DNA of 64,000 nt from Candidatus Afararchaeum irisae. Lineage in GTDB: Archaea > Halobacteriota > Halobacteria > Halobacteriales > Afararchaeaceae. The notes under the pieces are model-generated. The model had not been told where the DNA came from. It worked only from the letters and a program-made list of their open reading frames with translations, and searched no databases. Where the stretch lies: the NCBI GenBank assembly GCA_034190545.1, contig JAXIOF010000002.1:3246-67245 (forward strand), written 5' to 3'. Both the position numbers and the translations under genes were made by a program. Below, piece after piece: positions 2,097 through 35,298 of this stretch. The first letter of the stretch is position 1; each line of letters starts with the position of its first letter.

Positions 2097-3569
2097 TTAC
2101 ACTCCGTATATCTCGCCGAACTTCTCCTCGGCGTACTCGACGAAGGGATCGACGTTGAGGTCGTCGCCCGTGACGCGTCTGATGAGGTCGTCAGTCTCGT
2201 ACCGCTTGCCGTGTCGGTGTATCTCTTCCTTGAGCCAGTCCCTGAGGTGTGAGAAGTTGCCTCGGCTTATCTTACCATTGAGGTCTTCTATCTCGTCGTC
2301 GGCGGCGTCGAAGACCTGTGCGGCGAGGACTGAGCCGAGCGAGTAGGTCGGGAAGTAGCCGAAGCTTCCGTGTGACCAGTGTATGTCCTGGAGACAGCCC
2401 TCGGCGTCGTTCTCGGGTCTTATTCCGAGGTACTCCTCGACCTTGTCGTTCCAGATCCCAGGGACTTCGTCGACCTCTATCTCTCCACGTATCAGGTCTT
2501 TCTCTATCTCGAACCTCAGTACTATATGCATATGGTAGGTGAGTTCGTCCGACTCGACACGTACTGGATGGGGAGAGACCTCGTTGACCGACCGGTAGAG
2601 GGCACCGGGAGAGACTTCGGTCTCCAGGGTTTGGTTCAGCTTAGGCGCGAAGTAGTCCCAGAAGGCGCGCGACCGCCCGACGTGGTTCTCCCAGAGGCGC
2701 GACTGTGACTCGTGTACTGTGAGGTCACGCGCCTCCGACAGGGGTGTTGCATAGCCTTCGTCGGGTAGACCCTGTATGTAGAGGGCGTGTCCCATCTCGT
2801 GTATAGTCGACATAAGCGCGTCGAGCGGATTAGTGAACCTCGTGGTCACCCTCGCGTCGAAGGTGTTGCCCGACGTGAACGGATGGGGCGAGGTGTCGAG
2901 CCTCCCACGCGAGAAGTCGTACCCCATCTCTTCGAGAGCCGTCTCGGCGATCTCCCTCTGTCTCTCGTCGGTGTACTCCGACCCAAGCACCTTCTCAACC
3001 TCGACGTCGGAGTCTCTTATGTCGTCGATGAGAGGCTTGATCGAGTCCCTGAGGTTAGTCAGGACTCTCTCAGCGGTTTCGAGGTCGATGTAGGGCTCGA
3101 AGTCGTCGAACAGAACTGCGTAGGGGTCTCTGTCGGGATCTATCTCCTCGGCGTACTCCCTCTTGAGTTCGACGAGCCTTTCGAGAGTCGGCGCGAACTC
3201 GTCGAAGTCGCTCTTCTCACGCGCCTTCTTCCAGACGGGATGTGCGCGCGAAGAGGTGTCTGATATCTCCTCGACGAGTTCGTCGGGAACCTCGACCGAC
3301 CTCGTGTACTCGCGTTGAATCTCCCTCACGACTGCTTCCTCGTCTTCTCCGTTCGGCTTGACGGAGTCGAGGATCTCCCCCGTCTCGTCGTCGGTGAGTA
3401 TCTCGTGTTTGATCGACGAGAGAGTCGAGAGCTCCTGTGCGCGCGCCTCGACACCCTTCTCGGGCATCATGACTTCCTGATCCCAGTTGAGCACCGACGA
3501 CGCGTTCTCGACGTTACGTATACGTCTCACCCTCTCGACGAGGTCGTCGTATTCGTGTTCCATACTCAC
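2097..3569 (-). CDS. Carboxypeptidase Taq-type metallopeptidase (family M32)
   Basis: 490 aa with the HExxH motif 'HEMGHALY' and the C-terminal 'IHWSHGSFGYFPTYSLG' block typical of M32 carboxypeptidases. Confidence 0.9.
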   Translation of the reverse strand: MSMEHEYDDLVERVRRIRNVENASSVLNWDQEVMMPEKGVEARAQELSTLSSIKHEILTDDETGEILDSVKPNGEDEEAVVREIQREYTRSVEVPDELVEEISDTSSRAHPVWKKAREKSDFDEFAPTLERLVELKREYAEEIDPDRDPYAVLFDDFEPYIDLETAERVLTNLRDSIKPLIDDIRDSDVEVEKVLGSEYTDERQREIAETALEEMGYDFSRGRLDTSPHPFTSGNTFDARVTTRFTNPLDALMSTIHEMGHALYIQGLPDEGYATPLSEARDLTVHESQSRLWENHVGRSRAFWDYFAPKLNQTLETEVSPGALYRSVNEVSPHPVRVESDELTYHMHIVLRFEIEKDLIRGEIEVDEVPGIWNDKVEEYLGIRPENDAEGCLQDIHWSHGSFGYFPTYSLGSVLAAQVFDAADDEIEDLNGKISRGNFSHLRDWLKEEIHRHGKRYETDDLIRRVTGDDLNVDPFVEYAEEKFGEIYGV

Positions 3570-3623
3570 GATAGCTTCCCCCGAATAATAGGATTTATCT
3601 TACTCGCGTAACAAATTCGTCGT

Positions 3624-3908
3624 ATGTCTGAAGATGAGACTAAGGGGAACGTAACGCGTAGCGCGGGACGTTTCGGAGCGCGTTACGGACGCGTGGCTCG
3701 GAAACGCGTCGCCGACATAGAGGACGAGATGAACAAGAACCACGAATGTCCCGACTGTGGTGCCGAGAAGGTCAGCCGTACCGACACCGGGATCTGGGAG
3801 TGCGGCAAATGTGGATACCGTTTCACCGGAGGAAGCTACCAGGTCGAGACACCCGCTGGAAGACGTGCGGAGCTATCGATAGACGAAGCCGTAGAAGAAC
3901 AGAACTAA
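3624..3908 (+). CDS. rpl37ae: 50S ribosomal protein L37Ae (eL43)
   Basis: GRFGARYGRVARKRV...CPDCGAEKVSRTDTGIWECGKCGYRFTGGSY: a zinc ribbon and basic N-terminus typical of eL43. Confidence 0.9.
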   Translation: MSEDETKGNVTRSAGRFGARYGRVARKRVADIEDEMNKNHECPDCGAEKVSRTDTGIWECGKCGYRFTGGSYQVETPAGRRAELSIDEAVEEQN

Positions 3909-3924
3909 TCTAATCTGATCCACA

Positions 3925-4059
3925 ATGGCATACAGATGCGCGCGCTGTAAGAGGAGTATAGAGCTCGAGGGAAGAAGTAGCGTGCGCTGTCCCTACTGCG
4001 GTCACCGTATACTTCTCAAGGAGCGCGGTGGCGGAATCAAGAAGGTCGATGTCCACTGA
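3925..4059 (+). CDS. rpoP: DNA-directed RNA polymerase subunit P (Rpo12/RpoP)
   Basis: Absent from the ORF track because it is under 60 aa. My own translation gives [44 protein letters not shown]. It has a CxxC...CxxC zinc ribbon, is 44 aa long, and sits in the conserved position after rpl37ae. Confidence 0.8.
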
Positions 4060-4336
4060 GACCGAGAGCGACCCGAAGACACACAGCTTATCTGTAACTC
4101 TGGAGGACTCCGACGTCCACCTCGAATCTGTCTACCGATCCCTTCTTCCCGAGGTGGGCGACATCGACGGTGACTCGGAGACGGCTGTCGAGTACGACAC
4201 CGACGGTGACTTTCTGAGAATAGAAGTCGAAGCCGACAGCCTGACTTCTCTGAGAGCCGGACTCAACACGTGGCTACGTCTCGCACGTACCGCGAATGAG
4301 GCTCTGACCCTACCCGGCTCCGAAACTGAATCTTAA
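4049..4336 (+). CDS. KEOPS subunit Pcc1-like protein
   Basis: Small acidic protein (...[23 protein letters not shown]...[32 protein letters not shown]). The position between rpoP and prefoldin beta and the 'LRAxLNxxLRL' helix resemble archaeal Pcc1. I chose the ATG at 4049, which overlaps the rpoP stop (ATGTCCACTGA), over the track's GTG at 4028. Confidence 0.55.
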
Positions 4337-4375
4337 CCAGTACTCTTTTCAACTTTCCACCCACTCTTTACGTCC

Positions 4376-4762
4376 ATGGATCAAGCACTTCCGCCCGAGG
4401 CTCAGGAGAAGCTAGAGAAGATACAGGAGTTACAGGAACAGATCGAACAGATCTCGGTACAGAAGGCAGAGTCTGAGAAGGAGATAGACGACACAGAGAG
4501 AGCACTCGAAACCCTCCGCGAGACAGACGAGGGCACAGAGGTTCACCGCTCTGTCGGCAACGTCATGGTCAAGGCTGACAGACAGGAGACGATAGACGAG
4601 CTTGAGGAGAAACAGGAGAGCCTCGAAGTACGTATAGAGTCGCTCAAGAAGAAGGAGGAGAAGGCAGAGGAGCAGTTCGAGAACCTCCAGGAAGACCTCC
4701 AGCAGATGCTCGGAGGAATGGGCGGAATGATGGGCGGCGCGGGCGGTCCCGGCGCTCAGTAG
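4376..4762 (+). CDS. pfdB: Prefoldin beta subunit
   Basis: Coiled coil, then a beta hairpin (VHRSVGNVMVKADRQETIDELEEK), then coiled coil. This is the typical prefoldin beta architecture. The tail is Gly/Met-rich. Confidence 0.85.
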   Translation: MDQALPPEAQEKLEKIQELQEQIEQISVQKAESEKEIDDTERALETLRETDEGTEVHRSVGNVMVKADRQETIDELEEKQESLEVRIESLKKKEEKAEEQFENLQEDLQQMLGGMGGMMGGAGGPGAQ

Positions 4763-4792
4763 ACGTAGAGTAGACACGGCTCTTCTACTTCG

Positions 4793-5793
4793 TTAATTAG
4801 CTAAAATCCGTCTCAGTTCCTCGATGTACTCTTCGTACGAGTATCCGAGGCGCGAGAGCCAGACGTCCTGGTACGAGGGATGTAGAACCGGTACGACTCT
4901 CACGCCGAGCGAGTCACAGTCGACGGCTTCGAGGACTGAGTCGACGAATCCGTCTAACTCCATTCCCTCCTTTTCGAGGACGAGACTCGTCGAGTGTTTC
5001 CCTGTCGTGACGACTACCTCTGGATCTATATAGAATAGCGAGAGTACCCCGAAGCTTGACTTCGGGGGTGAATCGCGTCGGAATGTATAAGTAGTATTAA
5101 CAACAATATTGTAGTACGGCAGTTTGGTATAGGGCTTACTGCCTTATCAACAAACAGCAAACCCTGATGTATAGCCTTAATACACGGGCGATAATACGTG
5201 GACTGGATCGAAAGGTCCGAAGGTAAGCCAAATTCCCCGTATGGGGAGGATGGTCTAGTGGCAAAGTGGACTTGTCTCTAAGCAAAGCTTAGAGGCTAAC
5301 GAAGCTCCGCTTCGTGATGCCGTAGAGAATAAGACCCACCCATAGTAGGTGTCTGAGGTAGACTTCTCTAGAAGCCTCGGAGCTTGACTCCGAGGTAGTT
5401 CACCCCGTCTATCTCGTCCTCAAGATGTCTCCAGCAGTTTTCGAGTTCGTCGCGCGCAGGCTCACGGTTCGAGTCACCGTCCTCTTCCTCGGGGAAACAC
5501 TTGACAGCGTTCGTGTAGTAGACGTCCTCGGCGTCGACACCAGCGTCCTCGATAAGCTCACGCACCTTCTGTCCCGAGTGGCGCGAGGTGTAGGCGAGAC
5601 CCGTCCAGTTGCCCCCTCTCCATCTCTCGGCGTCGGGGTCTCCCTTTCCGGGTGCCTCACCCACGACGATCACTCTTGCGTCTTCGGCTCCGTTGCCCCA
5701 CGAGATACAGCTGCGCGACTCGACGAGTGACGCACATCTCTCACAGCCCTCTTCTAGGACGTTTCTCGTCCTCGGATCGGGAAAGTCGGGCAT
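4793..5793 (-). pseudogene. Family-4 (Fe-S) uracil-DNA glycosylase interrupted by a 374-bp non-coding element. The two intact halves are 5399-5793 and 4793-5024.
   Basis: The N-terminal half (the track ORF 5368-5793) has CERC..., the 'VVGEAPG' motif, 'AVKCFP' and 'ENCWRHL'. The C-terminal half has no Met and so is absent from the track. My translation gives (I)DPEVVVTTGKHSTSLVL...VVPVLHPSYQDVW...RRILAN*, with stop at 4793-4795, and it carries the HPS motif. Neither half has a frameshift or an internal stop. Confidence 0.85.
5025..5398 (-). mobile_element. Hairpin-ended non-coding element, copy A (IS200/IS605-derived PATE-like or intron-like), inserted in the UDG gene and co-oriented with it
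   Basis: Sense-strand 5' end: CTA-CCTCGGAG-TCAAG-CTCCGAGG-CTTC. Sense-strand 3' end: ACGCGATTCAC-CCCCGAAG-TCAAG-CTTCGGGG-TACTCTCCGCTATTCTATATAGA. Plus-strand hairpin coordinates are 5375-5395 and 5048-5068. The interior holds many short stem-loops, for example CTCTAAGC-AAA-GCTTAGAG, GAAGC-TCC-GCTTC, CCCC-GTAT-GGGG and GGCAGT...ACTGCC. The ends match copy B at 34878-35298. The exact boundaries are inferred. Confidence 0.65.
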
Positions 5794-5794
5794 C

Positions 5795-7102
5795 TTAGTT
5801 CTTGACCGAATGTATCGGAGCGGGTATACGTCCGCCTCTCTGCACGAAGTCGGCGCTCGAACTCTCCGAGACCTCCATCACGGGAACCTCACCCAAGAGA
5901 CCACCGAGCTCTATACTGTCGCCCTCGACGCCTCCGGGTATGACACGTACGCCTGTCGTCTTGTTGTTGACTACTCCTATCGAGCATTCGTCGAGTATTA
6001 TACCTGCGAGCTTGTCGGTCGTCGTAGACTCGGGTACTGCGAACATGTCGAGTCCCACGCTACAGACACTCGTCATAGCTTCGAGCTTTTCGAGTGACAG
6101 GTCTCCTTCCTCCACCCTGTGTCTCATCGTACTGTCCTCGCTCACGGGTATGAAAGCCCCTGATAGACCTCCGACGTACGATGACGCCATCACGCCGCCC
6201 TTCTTGACGGCGTCGTTGAGGAGTGCGACCGCCGCCGTAGTTCCGTGTGCTCCCACGGTTTCGAGACCCATCTCCTCGAGTATGTCGGCGATCGAGTCCC
6301 CGACTGCGGGCGTCGGAGCGAGTGAGAGGTCGATTATGCCGAACTCAGTATCCATCCTCTCCGCGGTCTCCCTTCCTATCAGATCACCCGCACGCGTAAT
6401 CTTGAAAGCGGTTCTCTTTATCCTCTCTGATACCTCTCCGAGGTCTCCCTCGTAGCCCTCGAGTGCCGAACGGACGACCCCGGGACCCGATATTCCGATG
6501 TTGAGTGCTGTCTCGGGCTCTCCCTCTCCGTGGAAGGCTCCCGCCATGAAAGGGTTGTCGGGAGGAGCGTTAGCGAATGTAACCAGACGTGCCGCTGCCT
6601 CGGGACTCCTCTCGGCGACATCGTGGACTGTCTCTCCCATTATACGTGCCGCCTCGGCGTTTATACCCGACTTCGTCGTAGCTATGTTGACGCTAGAACA
6701 GACGCGTTCGGTCGAGTCGAGTGCCTCGGGAAGCGACTCTATGACAGTCTTGTCGCCCTCAGTGAACCCTTTCTCGACTAGAGCACCGAAGCCTCCCAGG
6801 AAATCCACTCCTATCTCGTCTGCGGCGTCGTCGAGTGCGCGCGCGACATCGACGGGGTTCGAGTCGTCTAAGACAGATCCCACGGGAGTAACACTGACAC
6901 GTTTGTTGACTATCGGGACGCCGTACTTCGACGATACCGCCTCCGCCTCGTCGACGAGCGAGCCGCCTTCCTCTACGACCCTGTCGTATACGTCGTCGGG
7001 GTCGTCCGACCTCAGACGTATCCCGAGTGTCACGGTACGTATGTCGAGCATGTCGTCGTCGACCATCTCGACTGTCTCGATTATCTCGTCGCTGCTGAAC
7101 AT
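5795..7102 (-). CDS. UPF0210 (DUF711, PFL-like) family protein
   Basis: 435 aa. The N-terminus ...MLDIRTVTLGIRL... and overall Gly/Ala-rich pattern are typical of UPF0210. Confidence 0.75.
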   Translation of the reverse strand: MFSSDEIIETVEMVDDDMLDIRTVTLGIRLRSDDPDDVYDRVVEEGGSLVDEAEAVSSKYGVPIVNKRVSVTPVGSVLDDSNPVDVARALDDAADEIGVDFLGGFGALVEKGFTEGDKTVIESLPEALDSTERVCSSVNIATTKSGINAEAARIMGETVHDVAERSPEAAARLVTFANAPPDNPFMAGAFHGEGEPETALNIGISGPGVVRSALEGYEGDLGEVSERIKRTAFKITRAGDLIGRETAERMDTEFGIIDLSLAPTPAVGDSIADILEEMGLETVGAHGTTAAVALLNDAVKKGGVMASSYVGGLSGAFIPVSEDSTMRHRVEEGDLSLEKLEAMTSVCSVGLDMFAVPESTTTDKLAGIILDECSIGVVNNKTTGVRVIPGGVEGDSIELGGLLGEVPVMEVSESSSADFVQRGGRIPAPIHSVKN

Positions 7103-7157
7103 AGCTAAGAGACTGTCCCGAACGACAAAAAACGACCCCTATCTTGCTTACTCAAAT

Positions 7158-8024
7158 CTACTCGACCCAAGTCTTCGCGAACGAGTCGAAGAAGTCGTCT
7201 CCGGTATTCACGACGACGTGGCGCGCGAGTACCTCGTCGGATATCTCGTCTATACTGCTTATGTGGTTCTCGAGACGGTTCTGGTAGGTCGTCTTGAGTC
7301 TGTTACTGAAGTAAGTACGTAGACTCGTGTCGGACTCTAGAGCCTCGAATATCGTGTCCCCCCTCGCAGGAAGCTCGCGCTCGTCGGGTGCTATGACGTG
7401 TGCGAGTGTGACGTCGTGTTTGGCGAGAGCACTCAGACCCTCGGCTATACCGTCTGTGTCACCGAGGAAGTCGCTGGCTACCAGGACGAGAGACTTCGAC
7501 CCTATGGTCGACTCGTACTCCTCGAACGACTTCCGGAAATCAGTCTCGCCTTCGAGGTCTTCGCCCTCCTCGTTGAGTAGGTCTATGAGACGGAGTATCT
7601 CTCCCCTGTTCGAGCCTCCTGTGTCGAGCCTCTTGAATCCGTCACCGAACACAGATACTCGGAAGTCGTTGTTCTCGTCGGCGGCGAGGTATGCGAATCC
7701 GAGACCTATCTTGGCGGCGTACTCGAACTTGTTGTCGTCGCCCTCGCCGAAGTCCATCGAACGGCTCGCGTCTATGAGGACGTGTATGGTGAGGTTCCTC
7801 TCCTCCTCGAACTGCTTTATGTAGAGCTCCTCGGTTCGGGCGTAGACTCGCCAGTCTATGAGACGTGTGTCGTCGCCGGGCGTGTAGTTGCGGTAGTCGC
7901 TGAAGGTCAGACCCTCACCTAGCTCCTTCGACTCCTGTTCGCCCTGGAATATCGAGTTGACCTCCTTCTTGAGAGCGGCGTCGAACCGCGCGAGTTCGTC
8001 GAGGAAGTCGGGCTGTATTGCCAT
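7158..8024 (-). CDS. DUF58 domain protein (vWA-like partner of MoxR)
   Basis: FSDYRNYTPGDDTRLIDWRVYARTEELYIKQFEEERNLTIHVLIDASRSMDFG is the DUF58 signature. The gene lies directly downstream of the MoxR ATPase. Confidence 0.85.
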   Translation of the reverse strand: MAIQPDFLDELARFDAALKKEVNSIFQGEQESKELGEGLTFSDYRNYTPGDDTRLIDWRVYARTEELYIKQFEEERNLTIHVLIDASRSMDFGEGDDNKFEYAAKIGLGFAYLAADENNDFRVSVFGDGFKRLDTGGSNRGEILRLIDLLNEEGEDLEGETDFRKSFEEYESTIGSKSLVLVASDFLGDTDGIAEGLSALAKHDVTLAHVIAPDERELPARGDTIFEALESDTSLRTYFSNRLKTTYQNRLENHISSIDEISDEVLARHVVVNTGDDFFDSFAKTWVE

Positions 8025-8040
8025 TCTACTATCTCTACTC

Positions 8041-10827
8041 TTACAGCAGGTTCTCTATCGCGTCGTCCTCTGTGACTCCCTCGCGCTCTGCTCTGAAGTC
8101 GACTATTATACGGTGTCGGAGAACCGGAGGAGCCATTGCGTCTATGTCCTCCTCGCTGACGTGTGTGCGTCCCCTGAGGAGTGCGCGAGCCTTTGACGCG
8201 AGGACTAGACCCATGCTCGCACGTGGACTAGCGCCGTACTCTATCTGTTCGTCGTCACGCGTGTCGCCGACTATCCTTATCGCCTTGTCACGCAGGTCGT
8301 CGGCTATCGGAACCTGACGTGTGAGCTCCTGTATCTTCTGAAGCTCGTGCTGATCCATGACCTTCTGAAGCTGTATGTTGTCGTCGAGACTCTTAGTGTA
8401 TCTGTCGACTATCTCGACCTCCTCGTCGAAAGACGGGTAGTCGAGGACTATCTTCATCAGGAACCTGTCCGACTGAGCCTCTGGGAGAGGGTAGGTGTTG
8501 TGGTTAACTCCACACGCACCAAGTCCTGCGACGTAGTTGTGGCTCCCCGGGACTGAGAGACCTATGACAGAACCCTCGTACTCCTCCTTCTCTATCTGGG
8601 TTATCGGATCGTAGAAGACGTCTGAGCCGACTAGTTCTCTGAGATACTCGGTCAGGTTTTCGGCTTCCTCAACACGTGACGAGTACTCGTCGGCGACGTA
8701 CTCGACGGCTTCGGGCTCTTCCCTCTCGCCCTCGTAGGTCTTCCAGACTGCGTGTTTCGAGAGCGAGGTATTCTCGACTACCTGTGTCATCGAGACCCCA
8801 CAGCCGTCTGCTATCTCACCTACGTCCATTTCGTCTATCTCGGCGTTCTTTCTCTCATCGACCGTCTCCTCCATCTCAGTCACGAACGAGTCGAGGTAGG
8901 AGTTAGCCATACGGTCGCGTTTCGTACGTGCCCATCTGTACGAGTTGTACCAGTCCTTCGAAGACACGTCGTCTACGCCGAGCATCTCGACGAGCCTCTC
9001 GGCTGCATCGGAGTCGACAGGCGTGGTTCTGTGTGCCGAGTCGAACTCCTCGGCGTCAACGTCGGGTTCTTCACCTCGCCACTCGAACTCCTCGGTGTAC
9101 TTAGCTACGTCCTCGCCCTGTATACGTATCTCGTATGCGTCCTCTCTCTCGTATATCCACGGCAGTATACCGAAGCTGAGGAGAAGATGTGCGACGAGAT
9201 TCGTAGTCTCCCTGTCTTTCTGTTTGAACGTGATTCTCCTCCTCTCACCGTCGAAGTGTGACTCGGTGAGTACGAATATCTCAAGGAACGACCTCCTGAA
9301 CTTCTCGGGTGCGCGCAGAAGACGGTTCGGCTCGTCTATGCTGTAACGTTCTCTGAGGTAGTCGACGAAGGGCTTCGAGCTGATCTTGACTTCCTTTCCT
9401 CCCTTCTGTCTCGTCGTGTAGTCGAGTCCCAGTCTCTCGGCTATACCGATCCATCTTTCGAGCTTCTCAGTCAGGTTCTTCTGTGTGACTCTCACTCCTG
9501 TGTCGGAGACTGATCCCTCGGCGAGAACGAATCCCACGAAGAAGCCCGCCTCCTCGTCGGTCATCTCGCCGTCGAATCTGTGTACCGTGTGGGACTCGAT
9601 GTAGTCGGCTTCTCTAATCTCAGAGTCTCGAAGAGCCTCACGTATCTCTTCACCGACTCTTGTCTGAGTTCTGGAGCCGTCGAGATGTCTCAGAACCTCG
9701 TCGTACGACGCCGACGTTATCTGGGACAGCTCCTTCTTCGAGAGACCCGCCGCTGTTCTCAGACTGTCGAGTTCGTCGTGTGAGAGGTCTTCGTCCGCCC
9801 TCAGACGTTCGGTGAGACTCGCCACCTCGTCACGTCTCACGACACTGTACTCATCCCTGTCCGAGACTGAGTCGAGTGCTTCGTCGTGGCTCACGAACTC
9901 GTCGCTTCCTAACTCTAGATTACGCGGTGTCACTAGATGGTCGCCCTCGTCGAGGTTGCGCGCCTTGACCCAGCTTATGACCCCCGACCTGTTGACGAGG
10001 AAGGGATGGTTGTCCGAGACACGTATACGTCTCCCTGTCTTAGTCTCGAAGCTGTATATTTCGCCCTCGTAATCCTTCTCGTAGACCATACAGTCGGTCT
10101 CGACCATCTCTCCCTCAGGATTCAGCGTCTGTGTTGTGGCGTCGATGTCGTAGAGACGCATCTCCACCTCGTCTTCTTCATCCGTCTCTGTCTCCGTCTC
10201 TGTCTCTGTCTCCGTCTCTGTCTCTCTCTCGTGTACCACCTCACCCTTCTGTCTCGCGTGTTCGAGTGCCTCGCTCGCTTTCCAGAGCTTACCGTTCATG
10301 TAGAGACTCTCGTCGGGATGTAGACTCCCTTCCTGGTCTATCGGGTTCTGAGTCGCGAGAACGAAGAAGGGACGTGGCAGGTCGTAGGTATCACCGCTCG
10401 CTGTGACCTGTTTCTCCTGCATGGCTTCGAGGAGTGCCGCCTGTGTCTTAGGCGTCGCCCTGTTTATCTCGTCGGCGAGGACGATGTTGGCGAATATGGG
10501 ACCTTTCTGGAACTCGAACTCCTTCCTCGCCCCCGTGTCACGTATGACCTCCGTCCCGGTTATGTCCGACGGCATCAGGTCGGGGGTATTCTGTATACGT
10601 GAGAAATCGAGGTCTATGACGTCCGAGATGGTACGTATCATCAGAGTCTTACCCAGACCCGGGTTACTCTCAAGCAGAGCGTTTCCGTCGCATAACATCG
10701 TGGCGAGAACCTGTTCGAGAACCTCGTCCTGACCCACTATCTTCTTCGCTACCTCGTCCTTTACCCTCTGCATCTTCGACTGTACCTGTTGTAAGTTGTG
10801 AGAAGACCTGTCAGCCATTAGTATCAC
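8041..10827 (-). CDS. MoxR-family AAA+ ATPase (AAA_3) interrupted by a 610-aa intein
   Basis: The exteins read ...ESNPGLGKT (Walker A)...[10 protein letters not shown] (Walker B)...[14 protein letters not shown] | intein | [16 protein letters not shown].... Joining them recreates the canonical [22 protein letters not shown] block. Confidence 0.9.
8497..10326 (-). other. Intein (610 aa) with a LAGLIDADG homing-endonuclease domain, in the MoxR ATPase
   Basis: It starts with Ser (SLHPDE...). Block B is '[10 protein letters not shown]'. The LAGLIDADG-like helices are '[12 protein letters not shown]' and '[12 protein letters not shown]'. The C-terminus is '...[16 protein letters not shown]' followed by the +1 Thr. 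Coordinates come from my residue counting and were checked against the DNA at 8494-8499. Confidence 0.8.
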
Positions 10828-11809
10828 TTCCGCTTCTTATACGTACGTTGTATTCCTTTACGAGATCCGCGTCGTCTATCTTCTGCTGTTCCTCGAAGCC
10901 CGCTTGCTGTGACTCGACCCCACCGCCGTTGCCCGAGTATCCGCTTGAGTCGTAGTTCTCGGGTGAGGCTCCCCCTCCCGATCCGGTGCCTCCTCCGCCG
11001 CGCTGCAAAGTGGCGTCGAGGTTCTGAGATCCCGACGAGACGTCCTCTGCCTCGCCTAAGACGCTGTCGCCTGACTGGAGACCCTGGTATCCGGAGCCTC
11101 CCTGTCCACCGCCGGCTCCCCCGCCTCCGCCGCCGCCGCTCGACTGTGAGGTCGACGAATCCGAACCCAGGATTCCCGACGGCGAGTTGAGCGCGGGCTG
11201 GTCGGAGTACGTCATGTAGAAGGCTCCGATAGCCATTCCGAATATGAGGAGTATGCTGACGAATATACGTCTGTTGCTGAGGAGACCCGCGCTCGAAGTC
11301 GAACGTAGACGTTCGACGACATCGTCGTAGAGCGCGACAGCGACCGGGTTTTCGTCGTCCTCTTTCTTAGCGATGTCCCTCGCCGTCCTGAGTGCCTCCT
11401 CGACCTCGGGGTTGATAGACTCGAACTTCTCGACCTCCGAATAGACGTAGGCGCGGTAGGCGAAGCTCACGACGAAGACAAAGACTCCGACGCCGAGTGT
11501 CACGAGAGCACCCCCCGAGGGCTCTATTGGCGACTCGACAGGTGAGGCTCCGACAGACGCGAAAGCCGAGTTCACGAGAGACAGAACTGACGACGGAATC
11601 CGAACCGTGACTGAGTCGGGTATCTGGCTTATCTCGAAGAGAGCGAGAAGAAGGTTGATTGCCATCAAGACGAGAGAAGAGTCGACGACCGCGTAGATAA
11701 ACGAAGCCTTGTAGCCCTCTTGACGTATCTCCTTGAGCGCCTTACGTATCTTCTTACGCTCGTTCTCGACTGAGACTGACTCAGATCCGGAGGCGCTTGC
11801 TCCTGACAT
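10811..11809 (-). CDS. Hypothetical membrane protein with a Gly/Ser-rich low-complexity tail (MoxR operon)
   Basis: 332-aa ORF with about 4 hydrophobic helices and a long [18 protein letters not shown]... region. It overlaps the MoxR start by 17 nt. I recognised no family. Confidence 0.5.
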
Positions 11810-22955: not shown

Positions 22956-23873
22956 CTATTCGTACTCTATCGTCGCGGGTGGCTTGTGTGTGACGTCGTA
23001 GACGACACGTGCGACGTTGGGATGTGCCCCCGTTATCCCCGACTGTATCCTCTGGAGACTCTCCCACGGTATGTCCATCGCCTGTGCGGTCATTCCGTCA
23101 CGTGACTCTACGGCTCTCACGGCGACTATCCAGCCGTGAACCCTGTTGTCGCCCTTGACCCCCGTGCCCTTTCCTACGACTGCGGCGAGAGCCTGCCACG
23201 GGTCGAACTCCTCGACCTCCTCCTCGACGACTGCGTTAGCCTCGCGCGCGACCTCTAGCTTCTCCTCTGTGACCTCGCCTATCACACGCACTGCGAGACC
23301 GGGTCCCGGGAAAGGCATCCTCTCGCTGATCTCCTCGGTGAGACCGAGTGCACGTGCGACCTCACGTACCTCGTCCTTGTAGAGCTCTCTCACGGGCTCG
23401 ACGAGTCCCTCGAAGCTTATGACTTCGGGGAGACCTCCGACGTTGTGGTGGCTCTTTATGCCGCCCTCGCTCTCTATCCTGTCGGGGTATATCGTACCCT
23501 GGACGCAGTACTCCGCCTCGACCTCTGAGGCGACCTCCTCGAAGACACGCATGAACTCCTCTCCTATTATCTCGCGTTTCTCCTCGGGATCTGTGACTCC
23601 CGAGAGGGCGTCTAAGAACCTCTCTCGCGCGTCGACTATACGCAGACTCTCCATGTAGTCGAATGTCTCACGTATCTCGTCGGTCTCGCCCTTCCTCATC
23701 AGACCCGTGTCGACGTAGATAGGTGTGAGACGGCTGCCTATTGCCTCGTAGGCGAGTGCCGCGCTCACAGCCGAGTCGACGCCTCCCGACAGGGCTATGA
23801 CTGCGTGACCGTCGTCGACGTCTTCCTTTATCTCCTCTACCGCTTCGTCTATGAAACTGTCTGTGTCTACCAT
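22956..23873 (-). CDS. guaA: GMP synthase (glutamine-hydrolysing) subunit B, ATP-pyrophosphatase domain
   Basis: PP-loop motif '[16 protein letters not shown]', and a C-terminus '...[14 protein letters not shown]' typical of GuaA. At 305 aa it matches the split archaeal subunit B. Confidence 0.9.
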
Positions 23874-32056: not shown

Positions 32057-34876
32057 ATGGAGATAACACAGGTAGACGAAAACATCTACGAGATCGGGCA
32101 GGAAGACGACATGAACGTTCCTGCGAGGGTCTACGCTTCTGAGCTTCTTCTGGAGAAGATCGAACAGGACAAGACGCTCGAACAGGTCAGAAACGTCGCC
32201 ACCCTACCGGGGATACAGAAGTACTCTATCGTTCTCCCCGACGGTCACCAGGGATACGGATTCCCGATAGGCGGCGTCGCGGCTGTCGACATGGACGACG
32301 GAGTCATAAGTCCCGGAGGTATCGGCTATGACATCAACTGTCTCTCGGGGGACACCGAGGTTCTGCTGGAGTTCGGGAGGAGGAGGAGTATAGAAGACCT
32401 CAGACAGAGCTTTGACGACGAGAGGGCTGTCGTAGCTACTTCCGACTCCGCCGACACCTCAGGAATACATCTGTTCACTCAGGACGAGAAGACAGTATAC
32501 GAGGTAGACACCGGACTCCGGACAGTAGAGGCGAGTCCCGACCATCCCTTCTTAACCCCTGAGGGCATGAAGCCCCTACGAGAGATCGACGAGGGCGACG
32601 AGGTCTACGTCTATCCCTTCGAGGGTATCGAGGACGAAGATCCCGACGACGTCGTACTCCTCGACTCCGACGACTTCTCCTCCGAGGTCGCTGAGGTTCT
32701 CGAAGACCGCGGTCTCCTGCCTCTCTCGACGGCTGACAGGGAGTTCAACATACTCCTGAAACTCGTGGGATACCACACGGGCGACGGATCATTCAACCGC
32801 CACGGTGACACAGCCTTCTACGGAGAGGAGGAGGGTCTCAGACAGATACAGGAGGACATACGCCAACTCGGATTCGAGCCGTCGAGGATCTACTCGCGCG
32901 AGAGGAGCCACGAGATAGACGGGTCGGAGTTCGAGGCTGTCGAAAACACAGTCAAGTCGACCTCGAAGGCGTTCCAGAGGCTACTCGTCGCCCTCGGTGC
33001 ACCCGAGGGAGTCAAGGTAGACTCAGAGTTCACGACTCCCAACTACCTCGACGGCTGTACCGACTGGCAGAAGGCACTATATCTCTCGGCTTTCTTCGGT
33101 GCCGAGATGAGTAGTCCCGCTCCTCAGACAGACAAGAACCTCTACTGTCCTACGGTGTCACACAGCCGCAGGTCGGGAGGAGGCGACGACTTCGTACGTG
33201 AGATAAAGTCGTACCTCGAAGACCTCGGCATAGAGACCAACTCGACGGAGGAGTTCGAGTCTGAGACAGGGGCAACGAGATACCGTTTCGGTGTCAAGAA
33301 CGACTCCGAGAACCTGATACGTCTCTTCACGCGTGTCGGTTACACATACGCAGTCGAGAAACAGAAGGAAGCCGTCAGAGCCACAGTCTATCTGCGTGAG
33401 AAGGAACGTGCGATAGACGAACGCCGGACTGCGTCTGAGAGAGCGGTCGCGATGTACGACGGCGGCGTAGCCCCGAAGGAGATAAAGTCACGTCTCGAAA
33501 TAAACGACAGGTTCGTCGAGAGGAGCATATACGGCGACGCCAGAGCCGAGGTCAGACCACCCGCTGACTTCCCGGGATACGACGACTTCACCGACTCGGT
33601 CGATGTCGACGACGGATTCCGTGTCACGACTCAGGTCGAGTCGATAGACGAGATAGGCGAAAAGACCGTATACGACATAGGCGTAAGACACGACGCCCAC
33701 AGCTTCGTCGCAGACGGCTTCGTCGTCTCGAACTGCGGCGTCCGTGTTCTGCGTACAAACCTGAGTTACGACGACGTGAGGGGCACGGGAGAGAAGCTAG
33801 CCGAGAGGCTCTACCAGACAGTCCCGTCGGGTCTCGGCAAGGGAAGCTATCTAGACACAGACCTCGACGACATAGAAGGTATACTCGAAGGCGGCATGGA
33901 GTGGATGCTCGAAAACCGACACGCCTTCGAGGAGGATCTCGAACACTGTGAGGAGAACGGCAGGCTACCCGGCGATCCGAAGGCTGTTCCCGACGAGGCG
34001 AAGGAGAGAGGAGTCAGCCAGGTTGGATCGCTCGGATCGGGCAACCACTTCTTAGAGGTACAGAGGGTCTCGAACCTCTACGACGAACCGACCGCCGAAG
34101 CCTACGGTCTTGAGGAGGATCAGATCGTTGTCATGATACACACGGGGTCGAGGGGTCTCGGACACCAGACGTGTACCAACTACCTCAGGAGGTTCGAGAG
34201 GGAGTATCCCGATATAGTCGAGGATCTCCCCGACAAGGAGCTCATATACGCGCCGATAGGCGACGACCCAGCCGAGGAGTACAGAGACGCTATGTACGCC
34301 GCCGCCAACTTCGCGTGGTCGAACAGACAGGCGATAACACAGGCTGTGAGAGAAGTCTTCAACGAGATGTACAGTATCCGTGAGAGGGACGTCGAACTCG
34401 TCTACGATGTCTGTCACAACATAGCCAAGGAGGAGACCCACACCGTAGACGGCGACGAGAAGGAGCTACTCGTCCATCGGAAGGGCGCGACGAGAGCCTT
34501 TCCCGCAGGAAGGGAGGAGATACCCGATGTCTACCAGGACGTAGGACAGCCCGTTCTCATACCCGGTACGATGGGCACCGACTCGTGGATACTCTCGGGA
34601 GGTGAGAAGTCGCTCGACCTCTCGTTCGGTTCAACCGCACACGGTGCTGGCAGGGTGATGTCGAGGACACAGGCGAAGAAGGACTACTGGGGACGTGACG
34701 TACAGGAACAGCTCGCGGAGAGGGAGATTTACGTCAGGGCAGAGAGCGGATCGACTATCGCCGAGGAAGCACCCGGAGCGTACAAGGACGTCGATGAGGT
34801 CATGAGGGTGAGCGACGAACTCGGAATAGGTGAGAGGGTCTCACGTCTCGCTCCTATAGCGACTATAAAGGGGTGA
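32057..34876 (+). CDS. rtcB: RNA-splicing ligase RtcB interrupted by a 465-aa intein
   Basis: The exteins read ...LPDGHQGYGFPIGGVAA...GGIGYDIN | intein | CGVRVLRTN...GSGNHFLEVQ...HTGSRGLGHQ...HNIAKEE...GSTAHGAGR...IATIKG*. Joining them recreates GYDINCGVR. Confidence 0.95.
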   Translation: MEITQVDENIYEIGQEDDMNVPARVYASELLLEKIEQDKTLEQVRNVATLPGIQKYSIVLPDGHQGYGFPIGGVAAVDMDDGVISPGGIGYDINCLSGDTEVLLEFGRRRSIEDLRQSFDDERAVVATSDSADTSGIHLFTQDEKTVYEVDTGLRTVEASPDHPFLTPEGMKPLREIDEGDEVYVYPFEGIEDEDPDDVVLLDSDDFSSEVAEVLEDRGLLPLSTADREFNILLKLVGYHTGDGSFNRHGDTAFYGEEEGLRQIQEDIRQLGFEPSRIYSRERSHEIDGSEFEAVENTVKSTSKAFQRLLVALGAPEGVKVDSEFTTPNYLDGCTDWQKALYLSAFFGAEMSSPAPQTDKNLYCPTVSHSRRSGGGDDFVREIKSYLEDLGIETNSTEEFESETGATRYRFGVKNDSENLIRLFTRVGYTYAVEKQKEAVRATVYLREKERAIDERRTASERAVAMYDGGVAPKEIKSRLEINDRFVERSIYGDARAEVRPPADFPGYDDFTDSVDVDDGFRVTTQVESIDEIGEKTVYDIGVRHDAHSFVADGFVVSNCGVRVLRTNLSYDDVRGTGEKLAERLYQTVPSGLGKGSYLDTDLDDIEGILEGGMEWMLENRHAFEEDLEHCEENGRLPGDPKAVPDEAKERGVSQVGSLGSGNHFLEVQRVSNLYDEPTAEAYGLEEDQIVVMIHTGSRGLGHQTCTNYLRRFEREYPDIVEDLPDKELIYAPIGDDPAEEYRDAMYAAANFAWSNRQAITQAVREVFNEMYSIRERDVELVYDVCHNIAKEETHTVDGDEKELLVHRKGATRAFPAGREEIPDVYQDVGQPVLIPGTMGTDSWILSGGEKSLDLSFGSTAHGAGRVMSRTQAKKDYWGRDVQEQLAEREIYVRAESGSTIAEEAPGAYKDVDEVMRVSDELGIGERVSRLAPIATIKG
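32339..33733 (+). other. Intein (465 aa) with a LAGLIDADG domain, in RtcB
   Basis: It starts 'CLSGDTEVLL'. Block B is 'EASPDHPFLT'. The LAGLIDADG-like helices are 'LLKLVGYHTGDGSF' and 'ALYLSAFFGAEMS'. It ends 'HSFVADGFVVSN' followed by the +1 Cys. Coordinates were checked on the DNA (TGT at 32339-32341, AAC at 33731-33733). Confidence 0.85.
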
Positions 34877-34877
34877 A

Positions 34878-35298
34878 GTACCTCGGGGACAAGCCCCGAG
34901 GCTTCACCGTCTTGACCGCACGCCCAAAAACTGGGCGTGCCGTCGCAGGCGAATTTAATTCCCCTCGACCTTCCCGAAATGGGTCGGTTGGAATTCACAC
35001 CCGAACGCTCGGTGCGTCCGTGAGGGCCGGCGGCTCCACCCCGCCCGACAACTCCCGTCGCACCACGCCAAAGACGCGGGTTTTGAGAGGAGTCGCATTT
35101 CCTTGCAACTGCCGGCAGTTGCTTCGGATTAAGGTCTTTAATCCACGTCGCAACTGTATTCGTCGATACGGCAGGTTGCATCATATAGCTTACGCAATTC
35201 ACCCTCGGGGTCAAGTCAAGGAAAATCTTTGATTTTCCGTATCCCAAAAAGCTCTGCTTTTTGAAGACCCCGAGGCACTCTCGCTGTATTCCTGTAGA
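34878..35298 (+). mobile_element. Hairpin-ended non-coding element, copy B (same family as 5025-5398), starting immediately after the rtcB stop codon
   Basis: 5' end: GTA-CCTCGGGG-ACAAG-CCCCGAGG-CTTC (hairpin at 34881-34901). 3' end: ACGCAATTCAC-CCTCGGGGTC...GACCCCGAGG-CACTCTCGCTGTATTCCTGTAGA (stem arms at 35203-35212 and 35266-35275). The interior is GC-rich and full of stems. The only ORFs across it (34729-35247 on the minus strand and 34873-35232 on the plus strand) are basic and Arg-rich, unlike the acidic proteome. Confidence 0.6.

Follow-up and report, generated by a model that had tools for sequence, protein, structure and literature searches.

A probable gene-less IS200/IS605-family element inserted antisense into a family-4 uracil-DNA glycosylase gene of Candidatus Afararchaeum irisae

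A 64,000-nucleotide stretch of DNA from the archaeon Candidatus Afararchaeum irisae (contig JAXIOF010000002.1; hereafter the window) contains a gene for a family-4 uracil-DNA glycosylase (UDG) on its minus strand (5793->4793) which is split by 374 bp of interrupting DNA. The interrupting DNA, named el1 here, is very probably a gene-less and non-autonomous palindrome-associated transposable element (PATE) of the IS200/IS605 family, belonging to the IS1341/TnpB-associated lineage common in haloarchaea and inserted antisense into the UDG. It contains no open reading frame (ORF) for a transposase, displays near-terminal palindromes in direct orientation, has generated no target duplication, and carries ends of the tnpB/tnpA type. 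The UDG is a transposon-disrupted gene, neither an intron-containing nor a split gene. Elements of this kind are known and widespread in haloarchaea; what is new is the host lineage and the divergent core. The gene and the element are composed as follows.

5404..5793, minus strand: N-terminal part of the UDG, 130 codons (Met1...Gly130), with the CxxC/Cys ligands and the GEAPG motif
4793..5029, minus strand: C-terminal part of the UDG, 78 codons plus stop (Ile131...Asn208), with the HPS motif
5030..5403, plus strand (antisense to the UDG): el1, very probable PATE, 374 nt, non-coding, non-autonomous IS200/IS605 (IS1341-type), defined by its ends, its target and the comparison with an intact orthologue
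5025..5029, plus strand: target pentanucleotide TCTAT (family consensus TCTAC), native gene sequence directly 5' of the left end of el1, as seen from ATAGAT in the intact orthologous locus L001
5047..5067, plus strand: left-end subterminal hairpin CCCCGAAG-CTTGA-CTTCGGGG, followed by GTGAAT, with a left-end nhmmer match nearby
5375..5395, plus strand: right-end subterminal hairpin CCTCGGAG-CTTGA-CTCCGAGG, in direct orientation relative to the left one, with a right-end nhmmer match
5399..5403, plus strand: terminal motif TTCAC, last bases of el1 and predicted right cleavage-site motif, as in the family right ends and the published 3' end

The interrupted uracil-DNA glycosylase gene

The N-terminal ORF of the UDG encodes 141 amino acids (aa) from 5793 to a stop at 5368. 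Past position 5404 the UDG frame continues for 11 codons inside el1 before this stop is reached, and the remainder of the gene, which ends with the stop at 4793, lies in a different frame. No record of the truncated 141-aa product was obtained in the look-up. Neither of the two UDG parts contains a frameshift or a stop, and deletion of positions 5025-5398 gave a continuous UDG ORF of 208 aa. The rejoined protein matched the Pfam UDG family PF03167 with E = 9.6e-25, and the printed alignments with the solved family-4 UDGs 4zbx and 1l9g/1vk2 were free of gaps over the junction (residues 125-140). Another solved UDG, 1ui0, matched residues 15-183. Comparison with more than 100 haloarchaeal UDGs revealed 57-67% identity over the full length, the nearest UDG being the intact protein P0001 of Halorutilales archaeon Cl-col2-1 (88% identity, 100% coverage). 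The superfamily fold match, the Fe-S cysteines, motif A (GEAPG), motif B (HPS) and the contiguous junction all identify the host gene as a family-4 UDG.

The locus of the closest relative (L001) is fully syntenic (DUF711 - UDG - prefoldin - Pcc1 - RpoP - L37ae - M32 peptidase) and its UDG is uninterrupted. Since both halves of the window's UDG are undamaged and the orthologue in the nearest relative is free of any insertion, the data indicate that the insertion of el1 is evolutionarily recent and that the gene is not a decaying pseudogene. With el1 in place, the UDG is most likely non-functional.

The presence of the insertion was also evident in public sequencing data. Logan contig L122 (run SRR28304476) is 100% identical to window positions 5374-11102 and ends inside the right-end hairpin; contig L123 (run SRR28304477) is 100% identical to positions 2677-5053 and ends inside the left-end hairpin. 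The contigs end within the hairpins because repeats break short-read assemblies. Both UDG-el1 junctions thus exist in independent assemblies of two public runs. The organism of the window is itself present in these two runs, SRR28304476 and SRR28304477. A further contig of 2369 nt from SRR28304476 (L124) showed the same called genes as L123; it is known from gene calls only.

A preliminary description of this DNA had already proposed a family-4 UDG gene split by 374 bp, with the cysteines and GEAPG in one intact part and HPS in the other, and the alignments now confirm that the two parts form one domain over the junction. Its suggestion of a recent insertion inactivating a repair gene agrees with the undamaged halves, the intact relative and the PATE anatomy of the insert. 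Of the circumstances that it named as adverse, a disrupted allele decaying in relatives and an artefact of assembly are disfavoured by the syntenic L001 locus and by the recurrence of the junctions in the Logan assemblies of two runs, respectively.

Anatomy, boundaries and relatives of el1

Each hairpin of el1 comprises 21 nt with an 8-bp stem and a CTTGA loop, and the two are 81% identical as direct repeats. The distance from hairpin to end is 17 nt on the left and 8 nt on the right. Terminal inverted repeats are absent, and the palindromes near both termini are alike and in direct orientation. Paired near-terminal hairpins without terminal inverted repeats are a hallmark of IS200/IS605 elements. 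A target-site duplication is also absent: the left flank ends with TCTAT and the right flank opens with CCCGTC, without any repeat. Internal ORFs of 44 aa and 49 aa were detected, none larger, and the GC content of the insert is 47% compared to 56% for the window. The insert folds far better than shuffled sequence, with z = -5.5 on the plus strand and z = -5.25 on the minus strand.

The ends of el1 were compared with a family nhmmer profile built without the window copies. The profile matched the left end at 5034-5091 (E = 8.6e-4) and the right end at 5371-5403 (E = 4.6e-6), both on the plus strand and in the correct order; el1 is therefore antisense to the UDG. The opposite orientation, in which GTGAA would be the left target on the gene strand, was rejected based on the strand of tnpB in autonomous relatives and on the comparison with the L001 orthologue. 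The deletions of 5030-5403 and of 5025-5398 are equal in length and thus both restore the UDG frame. In the first case the site reads GAC GGG ATA GAT CCA (protein ...DEIDGIDPEVVV...; ...DEIDGIDPEVVVTTGKH...), in the second GAC GGG GTG AAT CCA (protein ...GVNPEVVV...), and the intact orthologue of L001 reads GAC GAG ATA GAT CCC. The boundaries 5030-5403 were preferred because excision then yields ATAGAT, as in the intact UDG of the syntenic L001 locus, and because they follow the TCTAC / TTCAC rule of the family. The precise empty site of the UDG would read ...GGATCTAT joined to CCCGTCTATC... That the UDG frame is restored at all follows from the seamless and duplication-free insertion of IS200/IS605 elements.

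The preliminary description was correct in stating that removal of the insert restores the UDG frame (208-aa ORF), but its boundaries of 5025-5398 have to be shifted by 5 nt to 5030-5403 after the comparison with L001. It had also considered the insert as co-oriented with the UDG, which is incompatible with the match of both ends to the family profile on the plus strand. The structured and non-coding character that it assigned to the insert is reflected in the z values and in ORFs of at most 49 aa, and the IS200/IS605-type element, which it gave as one option, is favoured by the anatomy and by the published ends of haloarchaeal PATEs.

An 8-mer composed of TTCAC and CCC, TTCACCCC, adjoins both window copies, el1 and a second element, el2 (see below). 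Together with the internal sequence GGGGTGAA, it was taken for an extended target of 8 nt accompanied by a guide inside the element, in the manner of the guide sequence of an intron or the bridge RNA of IS110. The idea was dropped because the 120 family ends place TTCAC within the element and show diverse bases after it. The shared CCC after TTCAC is a coincidence or a weak preference.

The right-end hairpin pattern was scanned over 185,579 species genomes and at least 120 sites were obtained; among the matches listed, every one was in Halobacteria. The family hairpins carry the motif CCYCGRRGCTTGWCYYCGRGG. From left to right, the architecture of the family consists of a variable flank, the target TCTAC, the left end AG..CA(A/G)GGCGAGTG, a hairpin, GTGAAGCC, the interior, ACGGTGAAG, a second hairpin, TAC-TTCAC and again a variable flank. 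The left end can be written as AG..GCGAGTG-hairpin-GTGAA and the right end as hairpin-GGTA(C/G)TTCAC, with GGTGAAG located 5' of the right hairpin. In the fetched loci, TCTAC or TCTAT was present 11-12 nt upstream of 54 of the 56 left-end anchors, preceded by diverse sequence. Of the 120 right ends, 101 have (C/G/A)TTCAC behind GGTA and diverse sequence beyond, and complete gene-less copies (n = 28) measured 366-561 nt, both counts being among the matches listed.

Relatives sharing these hairpins harbour a same-strand gene of ~410 aa between their ends, which was identified by Pfam as TnpB (OrfB_IS605 and Cas12f1-like TNB). Pfam-confirmed tnpB genes flanked by family hairpins were found in loci L054, L046 and L118, and three loci (L062, L110 and L081) also carry an IS200-type tnpA. 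In L054, a small AbrB/SpoVT-like ORF (...VTIPEEVRKGLDLKAGDQLKLTVEKLD) was recognized by eye only between the left-end hairpin and tnpB, at ~3740-3900 on the minus strand of the locus.

Haloarchaeal PATEs were defined as elements without inverted repeats, target duplication or transposase, which display near-terminal palindromes and are related to IS605/IS1341-type transposons (PMC3119063). The closest described element is HqIRS46, a 'homogeneous' PATE of Haloquadratum walsbyi (Dyall-Smith et al. 2011, PMC3119063), listed in Table S9 of that work as TCTAC (targeting sequence) AGATTAACAGGCAGAGTG CCTCGGGGCTTGACCCCGAGG GTGAATGCCGTC ... CGGTGAAG CCTCGGGGCTTGACCCCGAGG TACTTCAC, with the 3' end ...GGTACTTCAC. 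Like el1, it has no ORF, no inverted terminal repeats and no target duplication, and its length of 386-393 bp compares with 374 bp for el1. Both share the same ends: in HqIRS46 the left end is AG..A(G)CGAGAGT-hairpin-GTGAAT and the right end hairpin-GGTA(C/G)TTCAC with the loop GCTTGAC. HqIRS46 is found 3' of TCTAC, el1 3' of TCTAT, and the stems of the el1 hairpins differ by compensated substitutions (CCCCGAAG/CTTCGGGG and CCTCGGAG/CTCCGAGG). While el2 is typical of the HqIRS46 type over its full length, the core of el1 cannot be aligned to the family core. The host of el1 is a relative of Halorutilales, that of HqIRS46 is Haloquadratum.

Shorter versions consisting only of termini (TCTAC, the start of the left end, one hairpin and TACTTCAC; ~52 nt) are common across haloarchaeal genera in the fetched loci L002-L121, e.g. 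in L004, L010, L031, L053 and L071. The hairpin of the L004 copy is identical to the right-end hairpin of el1. These versions match the core-deleted form of HqIRS46 described in 2011; 52-bp core-deleted forms of haloarchaeal PATEs are on record (Dyall-Smith et al. 2011, PMC3119063).

Haloarchaeal transposons of the IS1341 type (tnpB-only) and of the IS605 type (tnpA and tnpB), namely ISNph, ISHwa and ISH12/ISH1-8, also display these subterminal hairpins together with a GGTA-NTT(C/G)AC right end. Their tnpB is enclosed by the two ends and shares its strand with the family RNA module, and tnpA is found at some loci. In contrast to them, el1 has no protein-coding capacity, and neither tnpA nor tnpB was found in the window.

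Core of el1, proposed mode of action and alternative explanations

The 3' part of such elements normally specifies a structured guide RNA (omegaRNA/sotRNA) reading into the right flank, which in the case of el1 would be CCCGTCTATCTCGTCC... A covariance model (R1) was built from the last 174 positions of the family and found 62 copies in the fetched loci. In the R1-aligned family, 98.2% of the cells are paired, compensatory changes are seen in 27 of the 44 pairs and 500 shuffles produced no equally good result, in an alignment that was fitted to the model. The corresponding region of el1 is the following.

5248..5403, plus strand: putative 3' module of el1, partial resemblance to the omegaRNA/sotRNA-like module of the family (R1 33.4 bits, E ~6e-8, much of the score from the right-end hairpin)

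Within this region, a long-range helix between GUGGAC (5266-5271) and GUUCAC (5398-5403) corresponds to GUGGAG/CUUCAC in the consensus, i.e. it was kept by compensatory change. The Rfam scan gave no sotRNA/omegaRNA match in the el1 region. PATEs often encode omegaRNAs for a TnpB acting in trans (Meers et al., PMC10055086), and the covarying 3' module of the family fits this view. A by-product of the analysis is that this PATE family possesses, in many haloarchaeal genera, a conserved structured 3' RNA module with strong covariation. It measures ~174 nt and is present in el2 (34873-35056, minus strand) and in 60 further copies in L003-L100. Rfam 15 detects it only as a sub-threshold match to sot2652, and the family seems to have no dedicated model.

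Several observations weigh against the assignment of el1 to this PATE lineage. The el1 core (~5092-5370) showed no similarity to the family core in the profile search or to any of the 120 fetched loci by BLAST, so that only its ends, its target and its architecture place el1 in the family; the match to an HqIRS46-like element is confined to the ends and does not extend over a full-length core. The target TCTAT is one base off the consensus TCTAC, and CTAGAAG is found 5' of the right-end hairpin instead of the family sequence GGTGAAG. Searches of the 64-kb window by tblastn with TnpB and TnpA queries gave no match. Finally, no empty-site allele of the host species was encountered: no such contig for the genes flanking the UDG was among the Logan contigs returned, the protein collection contained no intact allele above 88% identity, and a 22-mer adjoining the insertion gave 0 matches in the JGI metagenomes. 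A metagenome scan with the right end of el1 also gave 0 matches. Judged by its sequence, el1 is best described as a very probable PATE with HqIRS46-type ends and a divergent core.

The element inserted 3' of the pentanucleotide TCTAT without duplication of the target, as IS200/IS605 elements do. By analogy with IS608/ISDra2, the following mode of action is proposed. A Y1 transposase TnpA encoded elsewhere would recognise both subterminal hairpins on the plus strand, and insertion as well as any excision would take place on single-stranded plus-strand DNA, as suggested by IS608/ISDra2 and the haloarchaeal literature. Having no protein-coding capacity, el1 would depend on TnpA (and TnpB, if used) acting in trans. 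Seamless excision of IS200/IS605 elements is established for IS608/ISDra2. Cleavage in trans after TCTAT and after TTCAC could thus be followed by seamless rejoining of the flanks, by which the UDG would be restored exactly. Since PATEs excise seamlessly, inactivation of the UDG would be reversible in principle, and the gene would be restorable only at the DNA level, by precise excision driven by TnpA. The 3' RNA module may serve TnpB supplied in trans, and in el1 this module is divergent.

IS608 and ISDra2, the paradigms of single-strand 'peel and paste' transposition, share with el1 an insertion site on the 3' side of a 4-5 nt target that is not duplicated and the subterminal hairpins on one strand; the hairpin-to-end distances and the TCTAC / TTCAC motifs are lineage-specific. 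Seamless excision restoring the donor and a right-end omegaRNA reading into the flank are established for these two elements (Meers et al., PMC10055086), whereas the mechanism of el1 is deduced from its architecture only. The very probable PATE el1 represents a further example of the activity of IS200/IS605-derived PATEs in haloarchaea, which reaches here a lineage related to Halorutilales and a conserved DNA-repair gene as target.

A functional role for the insertion has a slim chance of being correct. According to this explanation, el1 would be either a reversible switch, in which excision and re-insertion by TnpA toggle the UDG and produce a transient mutator state, or an insertion maintained by a guide RNA, with omegaRNA-directed TnpB cutting the empty-site copies of a polyploid genome. 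The undamaged UDG halves, the seamless excision of IS200/IS605 elements, the omegaRNAs often encoded by PATEs for TnpB in trans (PMC10055086) and the strongly covarying 3' module, of which el1 keeps a part, are all in line with such a role. However, a simple recent insertion would leave the halves just as intact, tnpA and tnpB were not found in the 64-kb window, and the core of el1 is divergent and gave no sotRNA/omegaRNA match. A slimmer chance still is given to the specific scenario in which a plus-strand guide RNA of el1 directs TnpB to cut the restored UDG next to TCTAT, thereby spreading the insertion through all chromosome copies, and in which occasional excision by TnpA re-enables repair. 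If true, el1 would be a transposon-controlled mutator switch for uracil repair.

It is highly improbable that the 374 nt are cut out of the UDG transcript as an intervening sequence, be it a self-splicing group I/II intron, an IStron-like hybrid or a bulge-helix-bulge intron processed by the tRNA splicing endonuclease. Such an origin was suggested by the restoration of the UDG frame upon removal of exactly 374 nt, by the folding of the insert on both strands in comparison with shuffles, and by the existence of IStrons, which join IS605-type ends to a group I intron; a PATE with IStron ends has been mentioned (10.1101/2023.11.20.567912). The frame restoration is already explained by a seamless IS200/IS605 insertion, however, and a scan of positions 4700-5900 on both strands against Rfam 15 at a permissive threshold revealed no intron family, the best match being an implausible 19-bit riboswitch (E = 0.13). 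No bulge-helix-bulge motif that would remove 374 nt was detected within +/-25 nt around both junctions. Two canonical-like candidates for this motif were found, both inside el1, with ~1.8 expected by chance. Moreover, the conserved strand of el1 is antisense to the UDG, and the sister element el2 lies at the 3' end of rtcB, where no reading frame needs rescue. These lines of evidence also speak against the self-splicing or IStron-like removal that had been envisaged in the preliminary description. IStrons such as CdiIStron do resemble el1 as IS200/IS605-type elements within a gene that is restored by their removal, but no group I intron module was found in el1 and its orientation is antisense; rescue at the RNA level is therefore not expected.

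That the interruption is an artefact, with a repeat misplaced into an intact gene during assembly, is hardly credible: although the ends of el1 are repeats at which short-read contigs break, the passages from UDG to element on either side were recovered, without a mismatch to the window, in independent Logan assemblies of two runs, the junctions follow exactly the target rule of the family (TCTAT before the element, TTCAC at its end) and the contigs returned for the flanking genes included none with the empty site.

A second copy in the window, el2 at rtcB

A BLAST search of the insert against the window first revealed el2, which has the same ends as el1 and lies directly after rtcB.

34873..35293, minus strand: el2, PATE of 421 nt, typical full-length member of the family (nhmmer 281 bits, E = 1.2e-85; R1 180 bits)

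Its insertion point, behind TCTAC (35298-35294), coincides with the very end of rtcB. Its core gave a sub-threshold match to the Rfam family sot2652 (RF02657), with 27 bits and E = 7.6e-4 for a gathering score of 61. The RNA sot2652 is a sense-overlapping transcript at the 3' end of an IS1341-type tnpB in Halobacterium (Gomes-Filho et al. 2015, PMC4615843); the match is weak in el2 and was not obtained for el1. It is consistent with the PATE core being an RNA module of the tnpB 3' end.

In el2, the loop of the left-end hairpin is enlarged by an insert of ~52 nt consisting of two small hairpins (~35216-35267, minus strand). Copies in other genera (L056, L057, L030, L095, L121 and others) are enlarged at this position too, by an insert which shares the architecture but differs in sequence (TCGTTCGGAAGAC..GTCTTCCGTGATGACGAGAGAC..GTCTCTCGAACCAC). 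This insert may be related to the small mobile repeats (SMR-A), which are reported to target PATE palindromes, or may be an alternative form of the left end.

A weak element-like match at 23403-23430, inside a GMP-synthase-like gene, was judged to be due to chance. A tRNA scan of the window found none.

At the end of rtcB (34871-34876), the native ...AAG GGG TAG appears to have been turned into ...AAG GG/G TGA. Thus el2 provides the third base of the terminal Gly codon together with the TGA stop, which would leave the RtcB protein unchanged. The rtcB gene (32057-34876, plus strand) encodes a protein of 939 aa, whose length is due to the presence of an intein: residues 108-559 match the Pfam domain Intein_splicing, with RtcB matches on either side.

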